Shown here one piece after another: positions 2,121 through 12,609 of a stretch of DNA of 64,000 bases (positions within the stretch are counted from its first letter, which is position 1; each line of letters starts with the position of its first letter). Source of the stretch: Theionarchaea archaeon (lineage in GTDB: Archaea > Methanobacteriota_B > Thermococci > Methanofastidiosales > SZ-28-30); contig JACVGT010000018.1 of the NCBI GenBank assembly GCA_018992685.1, positions 64,001 through 128,000 on the forward strand. Direction: 5' to 3'. The position numbers and the translations under genes are program-made. The notes under the pieces are model-generated. The model searched no databases, had not been told where the DNA came from, and saw nothing but the letters and a program-made list of their open reading frames with translations.

Positions 2121-3068
2121 TTATCCGACAATGGAAAAGTGAGCCAGCAGGGATTCCAGTTGTATCTTTTCGTTCGATCCTTCTACCAATCTGAAATCGT
2201 GCTCTCCCAGCCTGTCAACGAGCTCAACTTTTTTCTCGTCAGGGATATTCAGGTTGAAAATCTCCCTGTGCATCTGGCGTAGAATGTCCTCCCCTGATAA
2301 TCCATGATTGATCAGGAGATCATTTAATTGTTTTCGAGCTGCCAGAAAGTCGCCACTCAGTGCATTCTGCATCATCACTCGGATATCTTCAGGAGTCGCC
2401 CTGGCCGATACCTGGTATATGACATCTCCTGAGATGTTCTTGAAGGCACTGGCTGCCTGCAGCAGGTTTTCAGACTTACGCATATCTCCTTCCGCCACAT
2501 AGAGGAGAGCGTTCATGCCATCTTCTGTCATGGTCAGCCCTTCATTCTCCGAAATCAAGGTTATTTTTGACCTGATTGCATCATCTGGTAAAGGGCCAAA
2601 TCTGAACACAGCACACCTGGACTGGATGGGTTCGATTATCCGGGAAGAGTAGTTGCAAGACAAGATGAATCGGCACGTTGACGTGTAGATTTCCATGGTG
2701 CGCCTCAGAGCATTTTGAGCATCTGAGGTTAAAGCATCAGACTCATCCAGAAATATGACCTTAAAATCACCACCAATAGGTCTCGTTCTGGCAAAATCTT
2801 TGATTTTCTGACGGACGACATTGATACCACGTTCATCTGATGCATTTGTCTCCTGGAAATTCTGTCTCCAGGTTTCACCAAAGAACTCACGGGCCAGACA
2901 GATGGCACAGGTGGTTTTCCCCACTCCTGCAGGTCCTGCAAACAGAAGATGGGGCATGCTCTCGTGCTCCACATAGTATTTTAGTCGTTTCACAATACTA
3001 TCCCGACCCACAACCTCATTCAGCGTTCGAGGTCTGTATTTTTCAGTCCAGGGTTTCTCGAAAACCAC
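2121..3068 (-). CDS. rfcS: Replication factor C small subunit (no intein)
   Basis: PWTEKYRP, GPAGVGKTT Walker A, NASDERG, LDESD, SRC motif. Confidence 0.97.
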   Translation of the reverse strand: MVFEKPWTEKYRPRTLNEVVGRDSIVKRLKYYVEHESMPHLLFAGPAGVGKTTCAICLAREFFGETWRQNFQETNASDERGINVVRQKIKDFARTRPIGGDFKVIFLDESDALTSDAQNALRRTMEIYTSTCRFILSCNYSSRIIEPIQSRCAVFRFGPLPDDAIRSKITLISENEGLTMTEDGMNALLYVAEGDMRKSENLLQAASAFKNISGDVIYQVSARATPEDIRVMMQNALSGDFLAARKQLNDLLINHGLSGEDILRQMHREIFNLNIPDEKKVELVDRLGEHDFRLVEGSNEKIQLESLLAHFSIVG

Positions 3069-3243
3069 AGTATCACCTGCTACGTGGCTTGAGGTTCTGA
3101 AATTTATAAAGGTTTGGTGACCTCACCCAGAGAATACCGAGTTCCAGCATATCCTTGAACATACACACACCCGAAGATTCTCACATGGGCTTCCCCTATT
3201 CTTTTCTTCTATAGAGATCCAATCTCATTTTTCTCTTAAAACG

Positions 3244-3255
3244 AGATAATTATCT
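3244..3255. promoter_or_regulatory. Perfect palindrome AGATAATTATCT upstream of the RRE/rSAM operon promoter
   Basis: 12-bp palindrome flanked by AAAAC/GTTTT, about 35 bp upstream of the TATA box. Confidence 0.35.
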
Positions 3256-3283
3256 AAGTTTTTTGCCCGTTGTCTTCTGCGTC

Positions 3284-3297
3284 AAAACGTTTATATG
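3284..3297 (+). promoter_or_regulatory. BRE-TATA promoter of the RRE-rSAM operon
   Basis: AAAACG-TTTATAT about 23-29 nt before ATG 3319, consistent with a leaderless transcript. Confidence 0.6.
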
Positions 3298-3318
3298 GTC
3301 AATCCACTGTTTATTCAC

Positions 3319-3945
3319 ATGAAAGATCTCGAGCACAAGTACATTCGCTGGTCTGACAACTGTGTATGGCAGTCTTTTGGTGAGACACTAGCTGTTTTAC
3401 ATACCCTCATGCCTGATGCAGGACTCATTCCTGCAGAGAATGTCACTCCTAGAATCCAGCTGAATGACGTGGGGAAGGACGTCTGGGAGTTGTGCGACGG
3501 CACCAGAACATTCAAAACTATCTTTGAACAGCTGTTGGAAGAATATGAAGGCGATCCAGAGAAAATCGAAGAGAATTTGAGAAAAACGGCCATAGAATTA
3601 GAGAAAAAAGGGTTCTTATCCTTCGAAGATACTCCCAAGGAGTATGAATACACTGACATCAACCCAGAGATGTATCCCTACTGGGACGACAATGTGCTCT
3701 GGAACGAGGTGGAGAATCAGGTACTTGCCATGAACAATCAAACCGGAGTGTCTTTTGAGTTCCCTGAAGATCTAGGAAAACTCTGGAAACTCTGTGATGG
3801 CAAGAGCACACTCAGGGAAATTCTTGTCATCCTTGAAAGGGAAGGAGGGGTAGACAAGCCACACCCGAAAAATATGGTACATCTGCTCCTGAAACAGTTG
3901 ATCAAGCTCAACATGATTGTCATGAGGGACTCCCCTGTCCCCTGA
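3319..3945 (+). CDS. Tandem PqqD-like (RiPP recognition element) protein
   Basis: Two repeats: LNDVGKDVWELCDGTRT...LEKKGFL and LGKLWKLCDGKSTLREI...LIKLNMI; start moved to ATG 3319 from the promoter position. Confidence 0.85.
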   Translation: MKDLEHKYIRWSDNCVWQSFGETLAVLHTLMPDAGLIPAENVTPRIQLNDVGKDVWELCDGTRTFKTIFEQLLEEYEGDPEKIEENLRKTAIELEKKGFLSFEDTPKEYEYTDINPEMYPYWDDNVLWNEVENQVLAMNNQTGVSFEFPEDLGKLWKLCDGKSTLREILVILEREGGVDKPHPKNMVHLLLKQLIKLNMIVMRDSPVP

Positions 3946-3954
3946 GGGATTCTC

Positions 3955-5316
3955 ATGCATCCTCTCAAGAGAAGAATTGTCGTCCAGCTCAAAGAAGATG
4001 AATACCTCCTCATTAACCCCTACTCTGGGCTAACTGATATTGTTGATGCAGAAGCATTGCGCGCTCTGGAGAACGGACATCCAGATCTCCAGAATGGTGT
4101 TATCCGGGCTCTCAGAAGAAGAGGTCACCTCAAGGAGGAAGATGACGAAGAGTATCTCTTTTCTTTCCTGGAAGCACAGGCAACCCGTGTACATAAGGCT
4201 GCTCGTTCCACTTACCTCCACGTTATTGTACCCACCTATCAGTGCAATCTGCGGTGCCCCTACTGTTTTGAGAAACATGTTTACAGAAAGGAGTTGAAGC
4301 AGAGGGCAATCATGGACGAAAAATCGGTGGATCTTCTCTTTGAGTCTGTGATGTCCCTGGATACAGAATCAAAAGAGAAGTGCATCGTACTCTATGGGGG
4401 GGAGCCCCTCCAGGTTCAGAACAAAGATATCATCCAGTACATACTGGAAAAGGGAGAGGACCTGGACTATTCGTTCAAGGTGGTTACCAACGGTGCTGAT
4501 CTGTATCATTTTGTTCCTGCACTCTCTGAGACAACTGTTCTCAAGATTCAGGTAACCCTTGACGGTCCCCAACCCGTGCATGATAGGAGAAGATTCCGAC
4601 CCGGAGGAAAAGGAACGTTCCATGATATCGTGAGAGGCGTGGATGCATGTGTGGAGCATGAACTGCCCATAGGAATACGAATCAATGTAGACAGAGAAAA
4701 TATTGATTACATGCCCGAGTTTGGGGAATTCTATAAACAAAAGGGGTGGTATCCCCAGGTATATGCCTTCCTGACCAATGTGCATGGCTCTGAGTGCGTT
4801 TCATACGTTCCATTAATCTCTCCAGAAGAATTCGTAGAGAAGATTGTACACCTCTTTGCAGAAGATGACCGGATGAGGCCTTTCTTACAAACATTCCGAT
4901 ACCCCAATGTTCTGCTGGAGCACCTCTTTGCGGGGAAGGAATTCAAGCCGCGGTTCTGGAGCTGTGGTGCCCACACCTCCATTTTGATATATGACCCTGT
5001 GGGAGATATCTATCCCTGCTACGAGGCTGTGGGTGATGAACGTCACAAGATTGGTGAGTACTTGCCCCAATTGCGGTTCAATGATGAATATGAATACTGG
5101 AGAAACAGAACAGTATTTGCAATCCCTGAGTGCAGAGAATGCAATTACAGCCTTCTCTGTGGTGGAGGATGTGCCTATGGGGCTTACAAGCAGCATGGAT
5201 CGATATACAGCCCGTACTGTGACAAGACCAAGTATTCATTGAAGTATGAAATACCTTATTTAATGAGACTGAGTGGGGAAGAAGTCTCTCTGTCTGAAGA
5301 GAGAGACTGGTACTAG
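3955..5316 (+). CDS. Radical SAM/SPASM peptide maturase
   Basis: CNLRCPYC, YGGEPL, VTNG, VTLDG; SPASM C...GDIYPC...CRECNYSLLCGGGC...PYC. Confidence 0.9.
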   Translation: MHPLKRRIVVQLKEDEYLLINPYSGLTDIVDAEALRALENGHPDLQNGVIRALRRRGHLKEEDDEEYLFSFLEAQATRVHKAARSTYLHVIVPTYQCNLRCPYCFEKHVYRKELKQRAIMDEKSVDLLFESVMSLDTESKEKCIVLYGGEPLQVQNKDIIQYILEKGEDLDYSFKVVTNGADLYHFVPALSETTVLKIQVTLDGPQPVHDRRRFRPGGKGTFHDIVRGVDACVEHELPIGIRINVDRENIDYMPEFGEFYKQKGWYPQVYAFLTNVHGSECVSYVPLISPEEFVEKIVHLFAEDDRMRPFLQTFRYPNVLLEHLFAGKEFKPRFWSCGAHTSILIYDPVGDIYPCYEAVGDERHKIGEYLPQLRFNDEYEYWRNRTVFAIPECRECNYSLLCGGGCAYGAYKQHGSIYSPYCDKTKYSLKYEIPYLMRLSGEEVSLSEERDWY

Positions 5317-5324
5317 GTGATGCC

Positions 5325-6620
5325 ATGAAGAGAACCCCTGTAATCCACGTGGGTGAGGATGAATTCCTCCTGTATAACCCTGTTTCAAAAGTGGTGGACG
5401 TGGTTGACTCTGACGTTGTCACTGCATTGGAGAGTGGAACCCTGCCGCCTGACATGAGAGAATATTTGGAAAGACATGGGCACCTCACCATGAGTGATGA
5501 TGAGGCAGAAGCCTGGTTAAAGGAGGAATGTTACAGGTCACATGCCACCCTTGCTGATTCTCCTGCTTACTACATAATTCCTACCTATAATTGCAACATG
5601 CGCTGTATCTATTGTTACGAGAAGGATTTGAGAAGAGAACCAAAAATCATGAGCAGTCGGACTGTAGAACAAGTTTTCAGTCTTGTGGAAAGCCGTCTAG
5701 TAGATACCATCATTCTCTACGGGGGAGAACCCTTCCAGAAGGGAACAAAACCCGTAATAGAACAGATTGCTAGACTCTCAAGAGAGACGGGGTGCCGCCT
5801 TTCTGCATGTACAAACGGCCTTGAATTGCTGGACTCCGAACCTCTTTTTGACTATTTCTCTGAAATCATCGTAACGTTGGACGGAGTGGAACCAGTCCAG
5901 AACTTCAGGAGACCTTCTGTAGGAGGACCCTCTTTTTCAACGGTGATCCGCAGCATTGAGAGAGTCATTGAAACAGGCACTCCTGTAACCATCTCAGTGA
6001 ACGCGGATGCTCAGAACGTGGAGTCACTACCTGAACTTGCAGATTTTTTCATTGAAAAAGGATGGCACACTCATCCTTCAGTTCACATTGCTGTGTCCCA
6101 CATATTGCAGCCGCTCGATAGGACCTATCCTTACATGCTGGAGCCCAAAGATGCTGCACAGAAAATGGTGGAACTCCACCAGAACTATCCTTCTATGGAA
6201 CTGTTCCAGGAATCATTCAAGGGGTTAAACCCGCTGGTTAACGTATTTTTCAAGGGAGAAGAGTGGAGGCCGCGCTACTGGTACTGTCGTGCAAACTGCT
6301 ACATGCTCCTTTTTGATCCGTATAACTATCTCTATCCCTGTTACATGGTAGTAGGGAGGCCTTCTTTTGCAGTGGGAAGATTCTCTGATACAATTGAGGA
6401 GTCTCCCAGCATGGCTGCGTGGAGAGAACGCACCTGTTTCACCATACCTCAGTGCAGGGAGTGCGCACTGGGCTGTTTCTGTGGTGGGGGATGTGCGTAT
6501 CGTCAGTATCGGAGAAGTGGTTCTTTTTCTGACCCGTATTGTGACACAGTGGAAGCCTTGATCACATATTATGTGCCATTTCTGTATGAAAAGGTGAAAG
6601 AAAGAGGTGATAGGCTGTGA
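5325..6620 (+). CDS. Radical SAM/SPASM peptide maturase (paralog of upstream gene)
   Basis: CNMRCIYC, YGGEPF, VTLDG; SPASM YC...LYPC...CRECALGCFCGGGC...PYC; RBS GGTGA. Confidence 0.9.
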   Translation: MKRTPVIHVGEDEFLLYNPVSKVVDVVDSDVVTALESGTLPPDMREYLERHGHLTMSDDEAEAWLKEECYRSHATLADSPAYYIIPTYNCNMRCIYCYEKDLRREPKIMSSRTVEQVFSLVESRLVDTIILYGGEPFQKGTKPVIEQIARLSRETGCRLSACTNGLELLDSEPLFDYFSEIIVTLDGVEPVQNFRRPSVGGPSFSTVIRSIERVIETGTPVTISVNADAQNVESLPELADFFIEKGWHTHPSVHIAVSHILQPLDRTYPYMLEPKDAAQKMVELHQNYPSMELFQESFKGLNPLVNVFFKGEEWRPRYWYCRANCYMLLFDPYNYLYPCYMVVGRPSFAVGRFSDTIEESPSMAAWRERTCFTIPQCRECALGCFCGGGCAYRQYRRSGSFSDPYCDTVEALITYYVPFLYEKVKERGDRL

Positions 6621-7300
6621 AAACCAGTTTTTGGGAAAGGGAAGCACTGTATGACCCTGATCACCAGAAACCCATCAGGTTAGTGAGGAATGTAGTAGCT
6701 GAGATGAGAAAGAGGGGAATGTCGGATGTTCTGGAAGTAGGATGTGGCAAAGGAAGAAACTGCCTCTACCTGGCCAGGAAAGGACTTAATGTGACTGGAG
6801 TGGATTCTGATTGCAGGACGTTGCTCTCTTTCCAGGAACTCTTGAGAGAGGAGGGGTTGTCTGCTGCCGTCGCCTGCGCCGATATATCAGCCCTGCCATT
6901 CATAGGAGAGTGCTTTGACCTGATTATGTTCATTCATGTCTTGACGTTCACGAGGGAATGTGCCCGCTGGAAAACTCTTGATGAAGCAAAGAGGGTTCTG
7001 AAACGTGGCGGCATCCTGGTCCTGGTGGAACGATCCCAAGGAGATCCTCTGTACCAAGAAGGCGTGCAGATAGAAAGAGATACCTACCGGTGCCAGGGGA
7101 TAACTCATCATTTTTTTTCCAAGGAAGAGCTGGACTCACTTCTATCTCCACTGAAAATCGCAATCATGCGAGAATCACGAACCATCGATACGAGCCACGG
7201 AAGCCCGCACGTTCATGGAATGTGGTTCTGTGTAGCAATTGATGAACCTCAGACGTCGTGCATGAAAGATTCCCTAATGGATATCAGTCATCAATGGTAA
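6617..7300 (+). CDS. Class I SAM-dependent methyltransferase
   Basis: VLEVGCGKGRN motif I, GVD, FDLI, RVLKRGG; GTGA overlap with the upstream stop. Confidence 0.88.
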   Translation: MKTSFWEREALYDPDHQKPIRLVRNVVAEMRKRGMSDVLEVGCGKGRNCLYLARKGLNVTGVDSDCRTLLSFQELLREEGLSAAVACADISALPFIGECFDLIMFIHVLTFTRECARWKTLDEAKRVLKRGGILVLVERSQGDPLYQEGVQIERDTYRCQGITHHFFSKEELDSLLSPLKIAIMRESRTIDTSHGSPHVHGMWFCVAIDEPQTSCMKDSLMDISHQW

Positions 7301-7934
7301 GAGTAACGTCTTCCACTCTTTTCCTTGGAGGGCTTCGAGGATTGTGGGAGGGTTTCCCAACGGGTATCATGGCCAGTAATTCCCAGGGGTCCTCGACGTC
7401 AAACAACATTTCCAGTGAGTCCTTTGCCACGAAGGGAATGTTCATCCAGCATGCACCATAGCCCAGATCGTGGGCTGCCAGAAGGAGGTTCTCAATAGCA
7501 GCTGAGACACTGAGAATATTCACGTATCCAAACTGTCTGAAAGCTTCAAGTTCATCCATGCCCTGATTCGTGTAGCATTTCAAGAACGGGCTATCTTCTC
7601 TTTCCATCAAGACCACGAACACCACCGGAGCAGACCCAAAGAAGAGGGAAACAAGACGAAATCGCTTCTTGAGGGCTTCTGCTGTTTCTTCAGGATTCTC
7701 CACAACTCCCCTCAGGAGTGACTTCAGCTCAAAGCAGCTCTTCTTAATACATGCTACCATCTCCCTTTTTCGCTGCTCTGATTTCACCACGATGAATCTC
7801 CAGGGCTGCCTGTTGGCACCGCTGGGAGCCATGGTTGCTGCCTCAAGCATGGCGACAATGTCCTCCTGCGGGACAGGAGTTGGGTTGAACCTTCTGATGC
7901 TTTTCCTGGTCCTGATAGCATCAAGTGTTTCCAT
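7284..7934 (-). CDS. Nitroreductase family flavoprotein
   Basis: IRTRKSIRRF, APSGANRQPWRF, AAIENLLLAAHDLGYGACW; start at METL overlaps the rSAM stop. Confidence 0.92.
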   Translation of the reverse strand: METLDAIRTRKSIRRFNPTPVPQEDIVAMLEAATMAPSGANRQPWRFIVVKSEQRKREMVACIKKSCFELKSLLRGVVENPEETAEALKKRFRLVSLFFGSAPVVFVVLMEREDSPFLKCYTNQGMDELEAFRQFGYVNILSVSAAIENLLLAAHDLGYGACWMNIPFVAKDSLEMLFDVEDPWELLAMIPVGKPSHNPRSPPRKRVEDVTLTIDD

Positions 7935-9144
7935 GAGCACGTCTCCCCTCTCTGTATTCGGTATAAATGTTGTCCACTCGTTCCAGAACGTTCTGGGCAT
8001 CTTGTTCTGGATCGAAAGAGCACTGTGGATCTGGCATGAAAGGGTCTCCATATGCCCCATAAGAAATACAGGATGCACCTCCCATGCATGTGAAGTTAAG
8101 TCGGGTATCTGTGTTAAAGGGGCATTTTGAACACTTTCCTTTCATGTGTGCGTATTTTTTTCTCATTTTCCAGAGGAAAGAATGGTTCCACATTTCTTCA
8201 AAACTCTGGGTCAATAAATTCCCTACCACCACAGGCATTCTCCTGCAGGCATAGCAGGTACCGTCAGGCATCACTGCAATATACTTCTTTCCTACCTGAC
8301 AGTGGTTCCCATTCTTGTTGACTAGTGAAAACATGGAATCGAGACAGGTTCCTGTACACACTACGGGCCAGTCACACCGTAGCCGGTTGACAAATACGGC
8401 CTTTTCTTGGTTCACTGCTTTTTCAAATGCACTATCAGTGATGTTCCCCAACCAAGAATACAATGATTTAACCTCTTGCGAGGTAAGCAGCATGTCGTTC
8501 ATTTGCTTTCCCCTTCCGAAGGGAACCAGCCGGGTTACCAGTACATACTCAGCCCCCAGCTGTTCTGCAAGATCAGTAATCTCATATGCATCCTGATAGT
8601 TATTCTTGTGTACGACGAGATGAATGTGGAAAGGGATTCCTGCCTCCTGCAGACATCCAATTCCCTGAAGCGTTTTTTCAAAGGCGCCTCTTCCCCTGAC
8701 TCTGTCATGCGTCTCTGCACGGACTCCGTCCAGGCTTACCTGGACAAACCTCAGAACGTCGTAGGTTGCAAGGGTTTCAGCCACAGAACGATCCACCAAA
8801 GTGCCATTGGTGAGGACAGCGCCTGAAACAGGATGATTCTGGCTGTATGCCTGTAGATGATCCAGCAAGGGCCATACGCTTGGTGAAACCAGAGGTTCTC
8901 CTCCACTGAGGGGAACACGGGGCAACGCATGCCACTTTTCAACGGCTGTCAGAAACTTGTCCAGCATAGCAATCAACTGCTCAGTTGTGGCCTGGTAGGT
9001 GATGGACTCATCTTGATAGCAGTGGGTACAATGGAGGTTGCAGTTCTCAGTAATCTGGTATTGAAATGTGAATGAGTTCTCCAGTTGGTCAACTCTACGG
9101 ACTCCTCGTTCCTCGAGTTGAGATATTCCAGACACGTCTTTCAC
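7921..9144 (-). CDS. Radical SAM/SPASM protein
   Basis: QITENCNLHCTHCY, SGGEPL, LTNG, QVSLDG; SPASM C...DGTCYACRR...CSKC...C..GASC...DPQC; GTG 9144 start inferred, ATG 9195 is the alternative. Confidence 0.88.
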   Translation of the reverse strand: MKDVSGISQLEERGVRRVDQLENSFTFQYQITENCNLHCTHCYQDESITYQATTEQLIAMLDKFLTAVEKWHALPRVPLSGGEPLVSPSVWPLLDHLQAYSQNHPVSGAVLTNGTLVDRSVAETLATYDVLRFVQVSLDGVRAETHDRVRGRGAFEKTLQGIGCLQEAGIPFHIHLVVHKNNYQDAYEITDLAEQLGAEYVLVTRLVPFGRGKQMNDMLLTSQEVKSLYSWLGNITDSAFEKAVNQEKAVFVNRLRCDWPVVCTGTCLDSMFSLVNKNGNHCQVGKKYIAVMPDGTCYACRRMPVVVGNLLTQSFEEMWNHSFLWKMRKKYAHMKGKCSKCPFNTDTRLNFTCMGGASCISYGAYGDPFMPDPQCSFDPEQDAQNVLERVDNIYTEYREGRRAHGNT

Positions 9145-9175
9145 AAGAATCACCAGCTTATCTGGCCCACTAACG

Positions 9176-9186
9176 TTTATATATTT
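9176..9186. promoter_or_regulatory. Shared/bidirectional TATA element between divergent rSAM and glycosyltransferase genes
   Basis: TTTATATATTT sits between GTG 9144 (-) and ATG 9205 (+). Confidence 0.5.
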
Positions 9187-9204
9187 AGTCCCCATAATGC
9201 CCGC

Positions 9205-10380
9205 ATGCAGGTGTTATTCGTTTCTAAGTATCCCCCTATTGAAGGATTTGTGTCTTCTTATGCCTATTGGTTGGCTAGAGGTCTGGGAGAACGAGGGCAC
9301 CAGGTTTTTGTTGCTACCAATGCCCAGGAAGTTGATACCAAATACAGAGAAGATGTTTCTTTGGAAGACCCGTCCCTGATACCAAAAGGAGTGACCCTAC
9401 GTCTCACGTGTGAGGACAAAACTCTGGGGTGTATTCCCTATTTCAATCCTTTCACTGAGAAATTGGCCTCTCTTGCTCTGGATTGCATTGATGAGCACGG
9501 TATTTCCCTTATTGATTCATGGTACCTCATGCCGTACGGGATTGCTGGATTGATGGTCAGCCTGCTTTCAGGACTGCCCCTCGTGGGGAGAGTGGCTGGC
9601 ACAGATGGAGAAAGAATGTGTCGCTCACCTCAATTTAACAGACTTGCGCTCTCATTTTTTGAGCATTGTTCACAGATTGTTGGAAATTTCAAAGCGATTC
9701 CCTCTATAACTCCGGAAATTCAGAAAAAGATGATTCCTCACGGGATTGTGCTGCATCCTTCATTCATAGAGGAGAGATCTCCTCTGGATCTGTCAGGATA
9801 TCCTCAATACGTCGAGGGAATTCCTGTCATTACCTTTATAGGAAAGGCAACGTCATTCAAGGGATTTTTTCCCCTTGTTGACGCACTCTCGCAGATACCA
9901 GACCCGTTTCTCTTTTTGGTAGTTTCTAACGGACCTGAATCCTTTCAATTCACAGAGCATGTAAGGAATCGAAACCTTGAAGAGAGAACACTTTTCCTCC
10001 CTTTCCAACCTCCCTGGAAGATGCCTGCAGTATACCGCTCTTCCACCGTAGTGGCTTGTCTGGAACATGGAAATTTGATACAAAGAGCTCCCATTGTGCC
10101 AAGGGAAGCTGCCTCCTGTGGACGCTGCACAGTAATCAGCCCTGAAATCCATTCAAAAGGACACTATCGCCTCCTGGAAAATGGGGTCCATACCGTGATT
10201 GCAGATCCTGATGATCCGGAGGGCCTCAGGAGTGCAGTCCATGATCTGATTTCTCACCCAGAAAAGGCTGATGTCATCGGACAAGGCGGACATGACTTTT
10301 TTTCCCGGCTGGACAATCCAAGAAATCACAGCACATATATTGATGGTATCCTGGACATGTACAGAAGAATCTGCGAATAG
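9205..10380 (+). CDS. GT-B glycosyltransferase (GT4-like)
   Basis: MQVLFVSKYPP...LARGLGERGHQV N-terminus, FIGK...KG, PIVPREAASCG donor-binding region. Confidence 0.85.
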   Translation: MQVLFVSKYPPIEGFVSSYAYWLARGLGERGHQVFVATNAQEVDTKYREDVSLEDPSLIPKGVTLRLTCEDKTLGCIPYFNPFTEKLASLALDCIDEHGISLIDSWYLMPYGIAGLMVSLLSGLPLVGRVAGTDGERMCRSPQFNRLALSFFEHCSQIVGNFKAIPSITPEIQKKMIPHGIVLHPSFIEERSPLDLSGYPQYVEGIPVITFIGKATSFKGFFPLVDALSQIPDPFLFLVVSNGPESFQFTEHVRNRNLEERTLFLPFQPPWKMPAVYRSSTVVACLEHGNLIQRAPIVPREAASCGRCTVISPEIHSKGHYRLLENGVHTVIADPDDPEGLRSAVHDLISHPEKADVIGQGGHDFFSRLDNPRNHSTYIDGILDMYRRICE

Positions 10381-10497
10381 AGTCTACAGGGGAAGAATAC
10401 GGCTGTACTGGTGATCCACACCATTTGAAAGTGGTTTGCTCATCAGTTCCCAGAAAATATACAAAGAGAACCTTCAGAACTGTATCTCCTGAGTTTC

Positions 10498-10626
10498 TTA
10501 TTTCATCTTCCTGAATTTCTTGATCATTTCCCCTATCAGCGGGTAGTACACATTCAGTGCCTGGCGAGAAAAGGTACAATCCGGCTTGGTCAGGTCTCCT
10601 TTCTCATGGGACGCATGATGAGAGGG
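10498..10626 (-). pseudogene. C-terminal remnant of a radical SAM/SPASM gene
   Basis: Frame without a suitable start: PSHHASHEKGDLTKPDCTFSRQALNVYYPLIGEMIKKFRKMK*, which resembles the C-termini of the neighbouring rSAMs (GSFSDPYC...ITYYVPFL). Confidence 0.55.
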
Positions 10627-10704
10627 TCATCAGGGGCTGAAAGGTTGAAAGCTCTAAGAAAGAATAGATGAATTCTGGTTATGACAACCGATTGATGCCT
10701 GAAT

Positions 10705-12609
10705 TCAAATCCGGGGTACATATTTACGTCCCATCAAGAACAGAAACCCGATGAATAATCCAGCCAGTTGTACCTCAAGCAGTCCATGTCTTCTGGAATC
10801 AGTCCACTCAGGCACATCTTTTGGCACTACCTGATCTCCCAGTGCTTCAAATTCTTCTCTTGTCATGTAATGTATCACGGGATGGTAATGACCCATAATC
10901 CCCGGGCTATTCTCACCAACAAGAGTGACATCATATGCATCTTGAGACCACGCCCCGGTAGCCCAGGGAATATTGTTGCTATCGGGAGCTGCCTCCGGGA
11001 GATGCCACTCAGGAACAACACTCATCCACCTGAGAACTATGACCTGATGTGAAGAAGGACCCCATTCCTGCCAGGTGATACCATTTTCCTCTCGAGCATT
11101 TGCTGGCTTCTCTTCTTCTCGCGAAAATACTATGATGTATTCATTGTCCTCATTGGTGAGAATCTCGTCATCCATGAGACTCCCGTGAGGGACAGAGGTG
11201 TAGATGCTCTTTCCTAATCCACCACTTCCCTGTTGATGCGTGAACGAGAAGTACCGCACTTCACTTCCTGTCATGGTTCTCTGACCCTGGCGGGTCTTTG
11301 GAAACTCTGGCAATCGTCCTGTGAGGACAATCACCTTGTCCTCGCCAAGCGCAATTGGACGCAGCAGGTATGAGACATAGTTGCAGCATGTTGCTCCACA
11401 CTCGAAGTTTCCTGGGGGATCAGCAGATGCACCCCGATTCCATAGGAGGCGGAAAAAGTCGCGAATCTCTTTTCGTGTGGTTTTTACATCGGTTCTCCCC
11501 CACGGGTTGGAGCTGATGTAGCCTTGCGCTTCCAGCATGGCAAGATCGATTCCAAACATTTTGAACCAGCCCAGTGTGGGCCCCTCAAAAACGTAAGGTT
11601 CAAAAGGGGAGACGGGCCTGTTGGGGACGAGAGCTGTCTGATCTTCAACAGCCTTTGATTTATCACATGTTATCCAGAATTTCTCACCTGTGGGCAGCTG
11701 GAGGGTGGCCCTGGGCCATTGTACGCCGCCAAAAGGCTCTCTATCTTGATCGGGGGCATAGATCCGAAGCCAGAGAACAGAAGGAACCAAAACATTATTA
11801 CCCCAGGGTCCAGCAAATCCAAAAGGACTTCCCACGCGCGTGTTGCCTGGTGCACGGTAGTCAGGTGGGCTCATGACGTCTGGATTCAAGTCTACAGCAT
11901 TCCCGATTCTTAGCTCAAAAGTGACTTGATAATGTCTTTTTTCACCAGTCCTGTCAGCACCTACCCTGAAGGGATTGGTATGCCCAGGGTCAGGCTCAAT
12001 ATCTACATCCACCAGTGGGACCTCACACACTCCCATGTTGCCGGTAACTGGATGAAGTGGGTCAAAGGGCTGCAGAATCTGGTAGTTCATGAAACGGCAG
12101 TGAGGGAAATCGCCTTCTATCAATAGTTTCGAGTTGAAAGGAGCAATGAAAATGAGTTTCAGATACGTAACGTGAGGATCAGGAGAGCTTTGATGAAGTT
12201 CCTCTGTAGGATCGTACATTTCGAGAGCATACCACTGATCTTCCGGTGTTATCTGGTCAGGAGTTACCAGTGTCCAGGTATGCGTTTTTTCACTGTCGAT
12301 ATAGGCAGGAAGCAGCCCATCAGGAAATTCGGCATCAGCCTCACCATCAAGCCATCGGTAGATGTAGTCCTGCAATGATTGGGAGAGAGTTTCAGCTTCC
12401 TCAAGAGCGCGCCTGCAGTATGTATCTCTGTCTTTCTGGCTTTCCAGTGCACACTGTAATCGTTCTTCACCCGTCATGGAGGGGAGATCCTGGTATGTCC
12501 ATTGTGTATCGGGGAAGAGAACCTCATTTTCAGGAGAGGATCTTTTGTCCTGAGAGATACAACCGCATAAGAGAAACCCCAGTAGAATGAGGGCGCATTT
12601 CCTGTTCAT
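10705..12609 (-). CDS. Exported lipoprotein of unknown function with C-terminal TM anchor
   Basis: MNRKCALILLGFLLCGC lipobox-like signal; Trp/Pro-rich body; C-terminal LAGLFIGFLFLMGRK. Confidence 0.75.
   Translation of the reverse strand: MNRKCALILLGFLLCGCISQDKRSSPENEVLFPDTQWTYQDLPSMTGEERLQCALESQKDRDTYCRRALEEAETLSQSLQDYIYRWLDGEADAEFPDGLLPAYIDSEKTHTWTLVTPDQITPEDQWYALEMYDPTEELHQSSPDPHVTYLKLIFIAPFNSKLLIEGDFPHCRFMNYQILQPFDPLHPVTGNMGVCEVPLVDVDIEPDPGHTNPFRVGADRTGEKRHYQVTFELRIGNAVDLNPDVMSPPDYRAPGNTRVGSPFGFAGPWGNNVLVPSVLWLRIYAPDQDREPFGGVQWPRATLQLPTGEKFWITCDKSKAVEDQTALVPNRPVSPFEPYVFEGPTLGWFKMFGIDLAMLEAQGYISSNPWGRTDVKTTRKEIRDFFRLLWNRGASADPPGNFECGATCCNYVSYLLRPIALGEDKVIVLTGRLPEFPKTRQGQRTMTGSEVRYFSFTHQQGSGGLGKSIYTSVPHGSLMDDEILTNEDNEYIIVFSREEEKPANAREENGITWQEWGPSSHQVIVLRWMSVVPEWHLPEAAPDSNNIPWATGAWSQDAYDVTLVGENSPGIMGHYHPVIHYMTREEFEALGDQVVPKDVPEWTDSRRHGLLEVQLAGLFIGFLFLMGRKYVPRI

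Follow-up and report, generated by a model that had tools for sequence, protein, structure and literature searches.

A theionarchaeal radical-SAM gene block that may tailor Cys/Gly-rich peptides encoded elsewhere in the genome

What does a block of peptide-maturation genes act on when no peptide is encoded beside it? The question is raised by a 64,000-nt stretch of DNA from an uncultured theionarchaeon of sediments (here, the window), in which seven real genes, all with intact frames and full Cys motifs, form two converging units and a divergent gene. The forward-strand unit comprises a stand-alone tandem RRE of two PqqD-like repeats, a predicted leader-binding protein (positions 3319 to 3945); rSAM1, a radical SAM/SPASM enzyme that carries an RRE-like domain of its own at the N terminus and resembles CteB, CrpC, and CefB (3955 to 5316); its paralogue rSAM2 (5325 to 6620); and a class I SAM-dependent methyltransferase (6617 to 7300). 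The reverse strand carries a nitroreductase-family flavoprotein of a cluster-specific clade (7284 to 7934) and rSAM3, a SPASM enzyme of an AcgM (ACGX)-related clade that lacks an N-terminal RRE (7921 to 9135 or 9195). A GT4 (GT-B) glycosyltransferase of a family starting KYPPIEG follows on the forward strand (9205 to 10380). The intergenic gaps inside the two units are 9, 8, −4, and −14 nt. The Pfam matches above cut-off (PqqD, 66.8 bits in two stretches; Radical_SAM in three genes; Methyltransf_11/25; Nitroreductase; Glycos_transf_1) agree with the layout given by an earlier sequence-only reading, namely, a double PqqD protein, three rSAM/SPASM enzymes, a methyltransferase, a nitroreductase, and a glycosyltransferase. 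Neither a protease nor an exporter is encoded within the block. Most likely, the block cross-links and decorates a small Cys/Gly-rich peptide of an undescribed family.

An archaeal TATA-like element, TTTATAT, precedes the start codon of the RRE gene by 29 nt (3290 to 3296, forward strand), and a second element, readable on both strands, lies between rSAM3 and the glycosyltransferase gene (9176 to 9186). The 7-mer occurs 12 times in the 64 kb and stands 29 to 30 nt upstream of the ATG in all five promoters compared (glycosyltransferase and RRE in the window and in the congener G001, and the glycosyltransferase at locus L043). The proposal that rSAM3 and the glycosyltransferase share the element at 9176 thus finds backing in the equal glycosyltransferase spacing in G001 and L043. 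The rSAM3 frame is open as far as 9195, and its likely start is one of two GTG codons (9135 or 9144) lying downstream of the TATA element.

The product of 3319 to 3945 was modeled with AF2 (pLDDT 83.6) as two repeats of three strands and three helices, the architecture of RRE/PqqD domains, and Foldseek matched the model to the solved RREs TbiB1 [TM(target), 0.84 to 0.86], PqqD, and PbtF; ThcOx and PKMT winged-helix proteins were also among the top-ranked matches. Together with the two Pfam PqqD stretches, these matches bear out the RRE fold previously suggested for this protein.

The block contains the CxxxCxxC motif and the auxiliary-cluster cysteines of rSAM/SPASM enzymes, as a radical-SAM RiPP system should. 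The best NCBIfam matches of rSAM1 were CefB (150 bits) and TIGR04463 (139 bits), and it also matched PapB (126 bits), all far below the cut-offs of these models (600, 525, and 340, respectively); rSAM2, 35% identical to rSAM1, scored 83 bits on the PapB model. By both sequence (E value of 3e-27) and fold, the best PDB match of rSAM1 is CteB, and its N-terminal region has an RRE-like fold. In the tree, rSAM1 and rSAM2 join CtpM and TIGR04463 (support, 100/100). The closest known systems are CteB (PDB 5WGG/5WHY) and archaeal CrpC (TIGR04463), which likewise combine an N-terminal RRE, radical SAM, and SPASM domains and act on Cys-rich substrates. The seven SPASM cysteines of rSAM1 are spaced 18-38-3-6-4-16, identically in rSAM2, compared to 19-38-3-6-4-19 in CrpC (PMC13692751), whose substrate is a large repeat protein, in contrast to the short peptides discussed below. 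Unlike the CteB and CrpC systems, this locus has paired paralogues, an extra RRE protein, rSAM3, a nitroreductase, and a GT4. The resemblance of rSAM1 and rSAM2 to CteB/CrpC maturases suggests thioether chemistry. Freyrasin-type ranthipeptide maturation (PapA/PapB) is related through the PapB matches, but the CxxxD/E motif that typifies PapB-type ranthipeptides was found in just 1 of 20 precursor cores.

For rSAM3, the HMM scores were 154 bits for AhbD (cut-off, 500), 132 for ACGX (400), and 126.5 for SbtM (350). In the trees, rSAM3 and AcgM form one clade with support of 98/94 in an IQ-TREE analysis that included neither SbtM nor a cut-off-passing AhbD, and of 0.99 in another tree, and motifs are common to rSAM3 and the AcgM clade. 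The earlier tree held 28 selected metagenome and 30 selected rSAMs of the window's own genome (G000) rather than every one, and the later one, from IQ-TREE, used 29 of those 99 rows. Because no AhbD above cut-off was present among 121 genomes, AhbD-like proteins served as stand-ins. ESM Atlas returned generic SPASM clusters and nothing more specific. The expectation that all three rSAMs would side with peptide maturases thus held, with rSAM1 and rSAM2 being CteB/CrpC-like and rSAM3 falling in the AcgM clade.

The ACGX system (AcgA/AcgM, TIGR04340, on a Roseburia plasmid) shares with this locus the rSAM3 clade, the order of rSAM followed by nitroreductase, and a substrate with Cys-Gly motifs; it differs in leader and in SPASM Cys spacing, rSAM3 is only 26 to 28% identical to AcgM, and the Roseburia nitroreductase beside acgM is just 22% identical to that of the block. 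Authentic AcgM scores 578 bits on the ACGX model, and its next-best family, and hence nearest characterized relative by HMM, is SbtM (TIGR04082), of which rSAM3 matches only positions 197 to 515 of 516. In the accessible parts of PMC9204691 and PMC11002830, SbtM is a thio(seleno)oxazole synthase acting on Gly-Cys within a GGUG motif; its signature, per the same part of PMC9204691, is a 4-Da loss and a 304-nm chromophore. The Gly-Cys target is present in the core of all 20 aligned precursors, the putative substrates here. The nitroreductase clusters with three other cluster-borne copies (support, 0.986), away from six other nitroreductases of G000. Its best models are BluB/FbiB; no azoline-dehydrogenase model matched at an E value of 0.001 and YcaO is absent from the seven genes, which argues against a SagB/ThcOx-type azoline oxidase.

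The glycosyltransferase has the GT-B Pfam domains and invariant C-terminal glutamates (E287 and E301) of GT4 enzymes, and its closest solved structure is BshA. Of its 21 homologue clusters, 20 are found next to a Cys/Gly peptide or an rSAM of the AcgM-like type, a closer link to peptide systems than the sequence-only reading, which had proposed possible glycosylation, could know. Of 80 glycosyltransferase loci, 36 include a Cys/Gly-rich small ORF (two controls gave 0/80 each), and 40 include an rSAM bearing the clade motif. A PqqD domain is recorded in one homologue (P0027), and another (P0023) has a weak PqqD match. The GT4 belongs to a wider rSAM/Cys-Gly-peptide module, and this genomic association suggests that it may glycosylate peptides. 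The methyltransferase has 27% identical homologues in two G001 peptide clusters, and its closest G000 paralogue (36%) sits outside this cluster. Mycofactocin loci (MftA-B-C, MftF, and MftM) likewise combine a stand-alone RRE, an RRE-less SPASM enzyme, a glycosyltransferase, a flavoenzyme, and a methyltransferase. However, MftC falls outside the rSAM3 clade, MftF is a GT2 whereas the enzyme here is a GT4, and no conserved C-terminal Tyr core is present.

Consistent with the earlier remark that no precursor is evident nearby, no cis precursor was detected in the window by six-frame reading of 3040 to 3330 and 10340 to 10760, a search for small ORFs led by ribosome sites, two profile searches, or a scan for Cys/Gly small ORFs and motifs. 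A precursor family was nevertheless tied to these enzymes, with the conserved leader and variable core typical of RiPPs: peptides of 40 to 69 aa whose leader contains NKKxW and whose core is rich in Gly-Cys. Among the nine tandem-RRE loci of G000 and G001, six carry a precursor in cis (the start of the frame on contig C140 is unclear); a precursor is missing from this locus, from its G001 orthologue, whose contig ends 94 nt past the glycosyltransferase gene, and from a 1.6-kb contig. The G000 members lie on other contigs (C18:10930-11088 and the divergent C10:13962-14156), in line with the prediction that the substrate is encoded in trans. Of the 24 precursor profile matches, 6 proved to be long repeat proteins and were set aside as unrelated; P0100 is a mis-clustered, unrelated protein. 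Neither the ten small peptides of G001, one of which gave a weak UspF match, nor the ten metagenome peptides scanned fell into an NCBIfam family. Separately, equal longest-contig figures are shared by precursor P0082 and glycosyltransferase P0106 (15697) and by precursor P0091 and nitroreductase P0129 (36020); as a lead only, this agreement suggests that some orthologous blocks have a precursor in cis.

The window RRE was predicted to bind the C18 peptide with a score of 0.74, compared to 0.00 for the best control. In a calibration that is roughly valid with the alignments used here, 0.74 is attained by 116/157 solved complexes and 2/215 mismatched pairs. Across the docking runs, 60% or more of the contacts recur, and the partner pLDDT is 51. 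Leader residues 7 to 19 are predicted along RRE strand 45 to 49, with Trp11 facing the helices, consistent with the RRE binding mode in which the leader forms a fourth strand and a hydrophobic residue fills the cleft between the helices. Because RRE-leader complexes have already been solved and close cousins pass, the docking indicates family-level likeness only.

As a precursor gene adjoins the sister clusters and is absent here, the block probably acts on peptides encoded elsewhere. Our preferred reading, which we hold to be somewhat probable, is that the locus supplies the tailoring enzymes of an archaeal radical-SAM RiPP system, that its own precursor gene was lost, and that it works in trans on NKKxW peptides, the candidates being the C18 peptide, the divergent C10 peptide, or a member in an unassembled gap. 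The C18 and C10 peptides would need no help from this block, since both have their own maturases. The first repeat of the tandem RRE would bind the leader and serve the RRE-less rSAM3, a pairing suggested by an rSAM3 paralogue fused to a tandem RRE (G000 C10:18301-20151). By homology with CteB/CrpC, rSAM1 and rSAM2 would grip the leader through their own N-terminal RREs and make Cys thioether cross-links. Within Gly-Cys motifs, rSAM3 would oxidize the Cys, with SbtM-type thiooxazoles as the likeliest product, a step to which we give an even chance at best, as we do to the nitroreductase being its redox partner. Two optional steps may follow, glycosylation by the GT4 and methylation by the methyltransferase.

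The main rival, which we regard as unlikely, is that the block is a decaying orphan: its precursor operon was recently deleted, the genome has no substrate for it, and the remaining genes await loss. A deletion scar is indeed present: 42 codons of a fourth rSAM/SPASM gene survive as a 3′ stump (10498 to 10626, reverse strand) that is 57% identical over 42 aa (E value of 5e-12) to the C terminus of G001 L035:3568-5130. An assembly artefact at 10626 was considered and rejected, as a contig of run X11 (record 6, 10284 to 10891; not flagged as a possible source) bridges the junction without a gap. G001 lacks the methyltransferase, nitroreductase, and rSAM3 genes at the orthologous position, where deletion has left short remnants. 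Because the whole G001 clusters C30 and C13 are absent from the syntenic G000 sites, cluster turnover is fast. The dN/dS relative to G001, measurable for 4 of the 7 genes (RRE, rSAM1, rSAM2, and glycosyltransferase), is 0.10 to 0.15, which favors our preferred reading, although as a whole-branch average it is compatible with recent loss of function; in line with decay, it is 2 to 4 times that of the neighboring MATE gene (0.067) and RFC (0.034); dS relative to L043 is saturated. Against decay stand the seven intact frames with full Cys motifs, the retained TATA elements, the cognate precursor in the genome, and the absence of indels wherever other sequencing runs cover the block, X11 spanning all 30 bins. 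The earlier idea of a fixed seven-gene pathway is weakened because G001 deleted three of them and the locus itself is scarred.

It is less probable still that two unrelated modules lie side by side, RRE-rSAM1-rSAM2 for NKKxW peptides and rSAM3-nitroreductase-glycosyltransferase, perhaps with the methyltransferase, for another Cys/Gly peptide or a protein, as for CrpC. Such a split would suit the wide occurrence of the glycosyltransferase and AcgM-like rSAM alongside leaders of different types (KYxxW and CxxCxGCHGC), the absence of the glycosyltransferase from all paralogous G001 clusters fetched (one match per genome), and the absence of rSAM3 from the L036/C18 and L032 clusters within the stretches read. 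However, rSAM3 paralogues occur in four precursor-bearing G001 clusters, a tandem RRE is joined to one in the C10 fusion, and locus L062 unites an NKKxW precursor, two rSAM1-type enzymes, this glycosyltransferase family, and a tandem RRE. Non-peptide chemistry, with rSAM3 as an AhbC/D- or NirJ-like tetrapyrrole enzyme, rSAM1 and rSAM2 as sulfatase maturases, and the glycosyltransferase as a housekeeping enzyme, is very improbable: AhbD is the top HMM match of rSAM3 and anSME the second PDB match of rSAM1, but AhbD-like proteins of the phylum reach up to 344 bits and fall outside the rSAM3 clade, CteB leads anSME by 12 orders of magnitude, the sulfatase maturase HMM gives 81 bits against a cut-off of 349, rSAM1 has the N-terminal RRE-like fold that those maturases lack, and RRE and precursor co-occur with these enzymes.

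A broader proposal, rather doubtful, is that AcgM/SbtM-like rSAMs and GT4 enzymes form a widespread, undescribed module that would convert Gly-Cys repeats into thiooxazole strings and glycosylate them, possibly on sulfur; in Theionarchaea it would be joined to paired thioether maturases and a tandem RRE, with precursor-less cassettes acting in trans on a genome-wide NKKxW pool. If true, this archaeal system would yield a combinatorial library of cross-linked, heterocyclized glycopeptides, plausibly metal binding. Should the block work in trans as preferred above, a maturase-rich lineage would diversify its products by shuffling tailoring cassettes. Literature searches returned nothing relevant for Theionarchaea with RiPPs, biosynthetic gene cluster, or radical SAM, no paper for ACGX with radical SAM, and nothing on the NKKxW family, although the supplements of the CrpC paper may list related enzymes. 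Characterized archaeal radical-SAM RiPP chemistry is scarce: in the accessible part of one preprint (10.1101/2024.10.07.616454), archaeal rSAM clusters could not be activated, and the substrate of CrpC is a large protein. New here are a precursor family without an NCBIfam model, named enzyme-substrate pairs ready for coexpression, and a GT4 family tied to peptide loci. Whether AcgM-type enzymes perform SbtM chemistry on Gly-Cys repeats can now be tested directly.

The nearby MATE gene had been suggested as the exporter of the product. A dedicated role was rejected as unsupported: 51 to 71% identical orthologues occur in three of five genomes tested, all three without an orthologue of the glycosyltransferase or rSAM1, and MATE is absent from the ORFs listed for the paralogous clusters. 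RFC sits between the MATE gene and the cluster, and in genome G002 an unrelated gene lies upstream of RFC.

All seven genes of the cluster have intact frames and the spacing first described, comprising a tandem RRE protein (3319-3945, +), rSAM1 (3955-5316, +), rSAM2 (5325-6620, +), a methyltransferase (6617-7300, +), a nitroreductase (7284-7934, −), rSAM3 (7921-9135, −), and a glycosyltransferase (GT; 9205-10380, +), and their Pfam families all score over cut-off. The TATA element that the sequence-only reading assigned jointly to rSAM3 and the GT (9176-9186) is supported by the position of TTTATAT, 29 to 30 nt upstream of the start codon in 5/5 compared promoters, including the GT promoter of three genomes. 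Because ATG 9195 sits upstream of this element, the rSAM3 start is probably GTG 9135 or 9144. The last 130 bases of the interval initially assigned to the cluster hold what is left of a fourth rSAM/SPASM gene, a stump of 42 codons that the earlier reading did not name. It is 57% identical to the C terminus of a full-length enzyme in the congener genome G001, whose orthologous contig carries a Theionarchaea annotation. Since a contig from a run that bears no flag as a potential source spans the junction without gaps, the junction is a genuine deletion scar.

The structure model of 3319-3945 (pLDDT 83.6) contains two repeats with three strands plus three helices apiece. It matches solved RREs, TbiB1 among them, bearing out the proposed RRE fold. 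Among its 40 homologs at E ≤ 1e-10, those named to a taxon come only from Theionarchaea or Methanofastidiosia. On contig C10 of the host genome (G000), an rSAM3 paralog and a tandem RRE are fused in a single frame, which suggests that the stand-alone protein serves rSAM3.

Clusters in G001 encode a family of 40- to 55-aa peptides. Their leader reads (L/V)NKKxW or, in a shorter variant, KxWxG, and in their core Gly-Cys repeats precede more cysteines. A precursor profile search returned 24 matches, 18 of them short family members. Of ten small G001 peptides that were scanned, including six from the family, none matched an NCBIfam peptide model. A precursor frame lies in cis at 6/9 tandem-RRE loci of G000 and G001, the exceptions being the window locus, its G001 ortholog (whose contig stops 94 nt past the GT gene), and a 1.6-kb contig. 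Family members were found on other contigs of G000 (91% complete), at C18:10930-11088 (E 1e-21) and, weakly, at C10:13962-14156, in agreement with the earlier suggestion that the substrate is encoded in trans. Leader binding by the tandem RRE is predicted: the window RRE modeled with the C18 peptide gave a score of 0.74 versus 0.00 for the best control, a mark reached by 116/157 solved complexes and 2/215 mismatched pairs, counts only roughly valid with the alignments used. The conserved leader lies against the first repeat, with at least 60% contact agreement between runs and a partner pLDDT of 51. Because similar complexes have been solved and cousins also pass, the docking shows a family-level fit rather than proof that the window copy uses this peptide. 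We lean toward a cluster that acts in trans on peptides encoded elsewhere. In the C10 locus (C10:13962-20151), the precursor is accompanied by three rSAM1-type genes, the natural tandem-RRE/rSAM3 fusion, and then a probable B12-rSAM. At L037 (∼10930-11100, +), the ribosome-site-led ATG of a precursor-like frame and the Cys/Gly core lie in different reading frames, which may reflect a frameshift, a sequencing error, or a GTG start.

Decay of the window cluster, which lacks a precursor gene of its own, is a possible but rather unlikely account. G001 retains the RRE, rSAM1, rSAM2, and GT genes (74 to 85% identity), again next to RFC and MATE. For these four genes dN/dS is 0.10 to 0.15, well below 1 but above the values for MATE (0.067) and RFC (0.034). 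The methyltransferase, nitroreductase, and rSAM3 are deleted from the orthologous G001 site, leaving short remnants, which weakens the idea of a single fixed pathway of seven genes. Two entire G001 clusters are missing at syntenic G000 sites; the peptide clusters are modular cassettes with fast turnover. That two independent modules stand side by side is improbable. The nitroreductase-rSAM3/GT arrangement is retained in the locus L043. In the metagenome locus L062, a precursor, two rSAM1-type enzymes, the same GT family, a tandem RRE, and a membrane protease occur together. For the favored trans-acting cluster, a protease and an exporter must be supplied from outside the seven-gene block. The MATE gene (726-2108), previously proposed as the exporter, has no evident link to the cluster, as orthologs exist in cluster-free genomes. 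The L062/L064 contig, with its complete NKKxW system, also encodes a NosD/dockerin/CARDB protein, a gene type known from Bathyarchaeia.

The best models for rSAM1 and rSAM2 were CefB, TIGR04463, and geopeptide, all far under cut-off, and none of the cluster's maturases reached a curated family cut-off. CteB is the closest solved relative of rSAM1 in both sequence and fold, and the rSAM1 model has an RRE-like N terminus. The SPASM Cys spacing of both enzymes, 18-38-3-6-4-16, is near the 19-38-3-6-4-19 of CrpC, an archaeal, ranthionine-forming enzyme (PMC13692751) belonging to TIGR04463. By homology with CteB and CrpC, rSAM1 and rSAM2 would form thioether cross-links. At E 1e-40, rSAM1 had 12 matches in G000, 23 in G001, and 3 in a further genome, G002, and none in the remaining 28 genomes searched.

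HMM scores for rSAM3 were ambiguous (AhbD, 154; MftC, 138; ACGX, 132; SbtM, 126.5 bits). In two trees, whose taxa included AhbD-like proteins but not true AhbD or SbtM, rSAM3 grouped with the annotated ACGX maturase AcgM (support 0.99; 98/94), separate from MftC, TIGR04053, and AhbD-like proteins; non-peptide chemistry appears very improbable. In Roseburia, a nitroreductase gene comes directly after acgM, as one does after rSAM3, although the two nitroreductases are only 22% alike; the window copy forms its own clade with three further cluster-borne copies and would have a redox role. AcgM's next-best family is SbtM, which forms thiooxazoles at Gly-Cys (−4 Da; PMC9204691). Gly-Cys is present in 20/20 aligned precursors, and the PapB motif in only 1/20. 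By analogy with SbtM, rSAM3 would oxidize Cys at Gly-Cys. A metal-binding role is a guess, prompted by reported thiooxazole metallophores.

The GT belongs to GT4, with BshA as nearest solved structure, and was found in only 2/133 genomes of the class. Metagenomes yielded 315 stretches with relatives; among the best 80 of these, an rSAM neighbor was found at 48, an rSAM with the rSAM3-clade motif adjoined the GT at 40, and a Cys/Gly-rich small ORF occurred at 36 (0/80 in both reversed and complemented controls). After clustering at 70% identity, 20/21 clusters from these 80 had a clade-motif rSAM or Cys/Gly small ORF, and some longer homologs carry a PqqD-like C-terminal domain. Judged by these neighbors and domains, the GT is a peptide-system gene, mostly paired with an AcgM-like enzyme; glycosylation and methylation would be optional tailoring steps. 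Two recurrent systems emerged from these loci. One, an operon (L049, L053, L063, L067, L075, L107, L110, L117), combines an AcgM-like rSAM, PqqD, and GT4 with a prenyltransferase-fold protein, an asparagine-synthase-like protein, a metallo-beta-lactamase fusion, and a peptide with a CxxCxxCHGC(R/K) end; no family model matched the two peptides scanned. The other (L047, L048, L056, L059, L069, L080, L103, L104) places an ACGX-type rSAM near cut-off (347 and 326 bits in two tested) beside GT4 and one to three peptides with a KYxxW leader and CSGC repeats.

RRE-dependent rSAM/SPASM maturation of RiPPs is known, with one archaeal example, acting on a protein substrate (CrpC; PMC13692751). The open-access text searched contained no description of the GT4 module, the tandem RRE, the precursor family, or a system that pairs CteB-like with AcgM-like enzymes. 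A substrate family and testable chemistry are now defined for the system.

Radical SAM enzymes abound in the host genome (CxxxCxxC occurs in 66 ORFs, and a crude pattern flagged 31 as SPASM), many adjoining small ribosome-site-led peptide genes. Twin short CMCC-box peptides (C1:310154-310231 and 310538-310636, −) lie upstream of an rSAM, PqqD, and methyltransferase and are conserved in G001 and G002. A precursor with 9-residue Cys repeats (C2:35882-36109, −; shorter in G001) precedes an rSAM pair and an MFS gene, and a 79-aa G001 peptide with three FCATLP repeats (L041:956-1195) also precedes an rSAM pair. Peptides of 32 aa with a terminal PWK..CL motif (C3:57029-57127, C19:17743-17841, and C7 ∼100340-100450) adjoin RRE-fused rSAMs and membrane proteases. 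Within the window, which corresponds to C1:64001-128000 of G000, a 634-aa lipoprotein-like protein (10705-12609, −) had no match in Pfam or NCBIfam and has related stretches in two sequencing runs, and a 172-aa nucleotidyltransferase-like protein (87-605, +) weakly matched AbiEii (E 0.036, below cut-off). A dispersed family of 28- to 48-aa ORFs (C5:40241, C5:179917, C14:67119, C19:6492, C22:4304, and C18:14737) shares a start resembling GWPFEP and a Gly-rich end resembling SPG.
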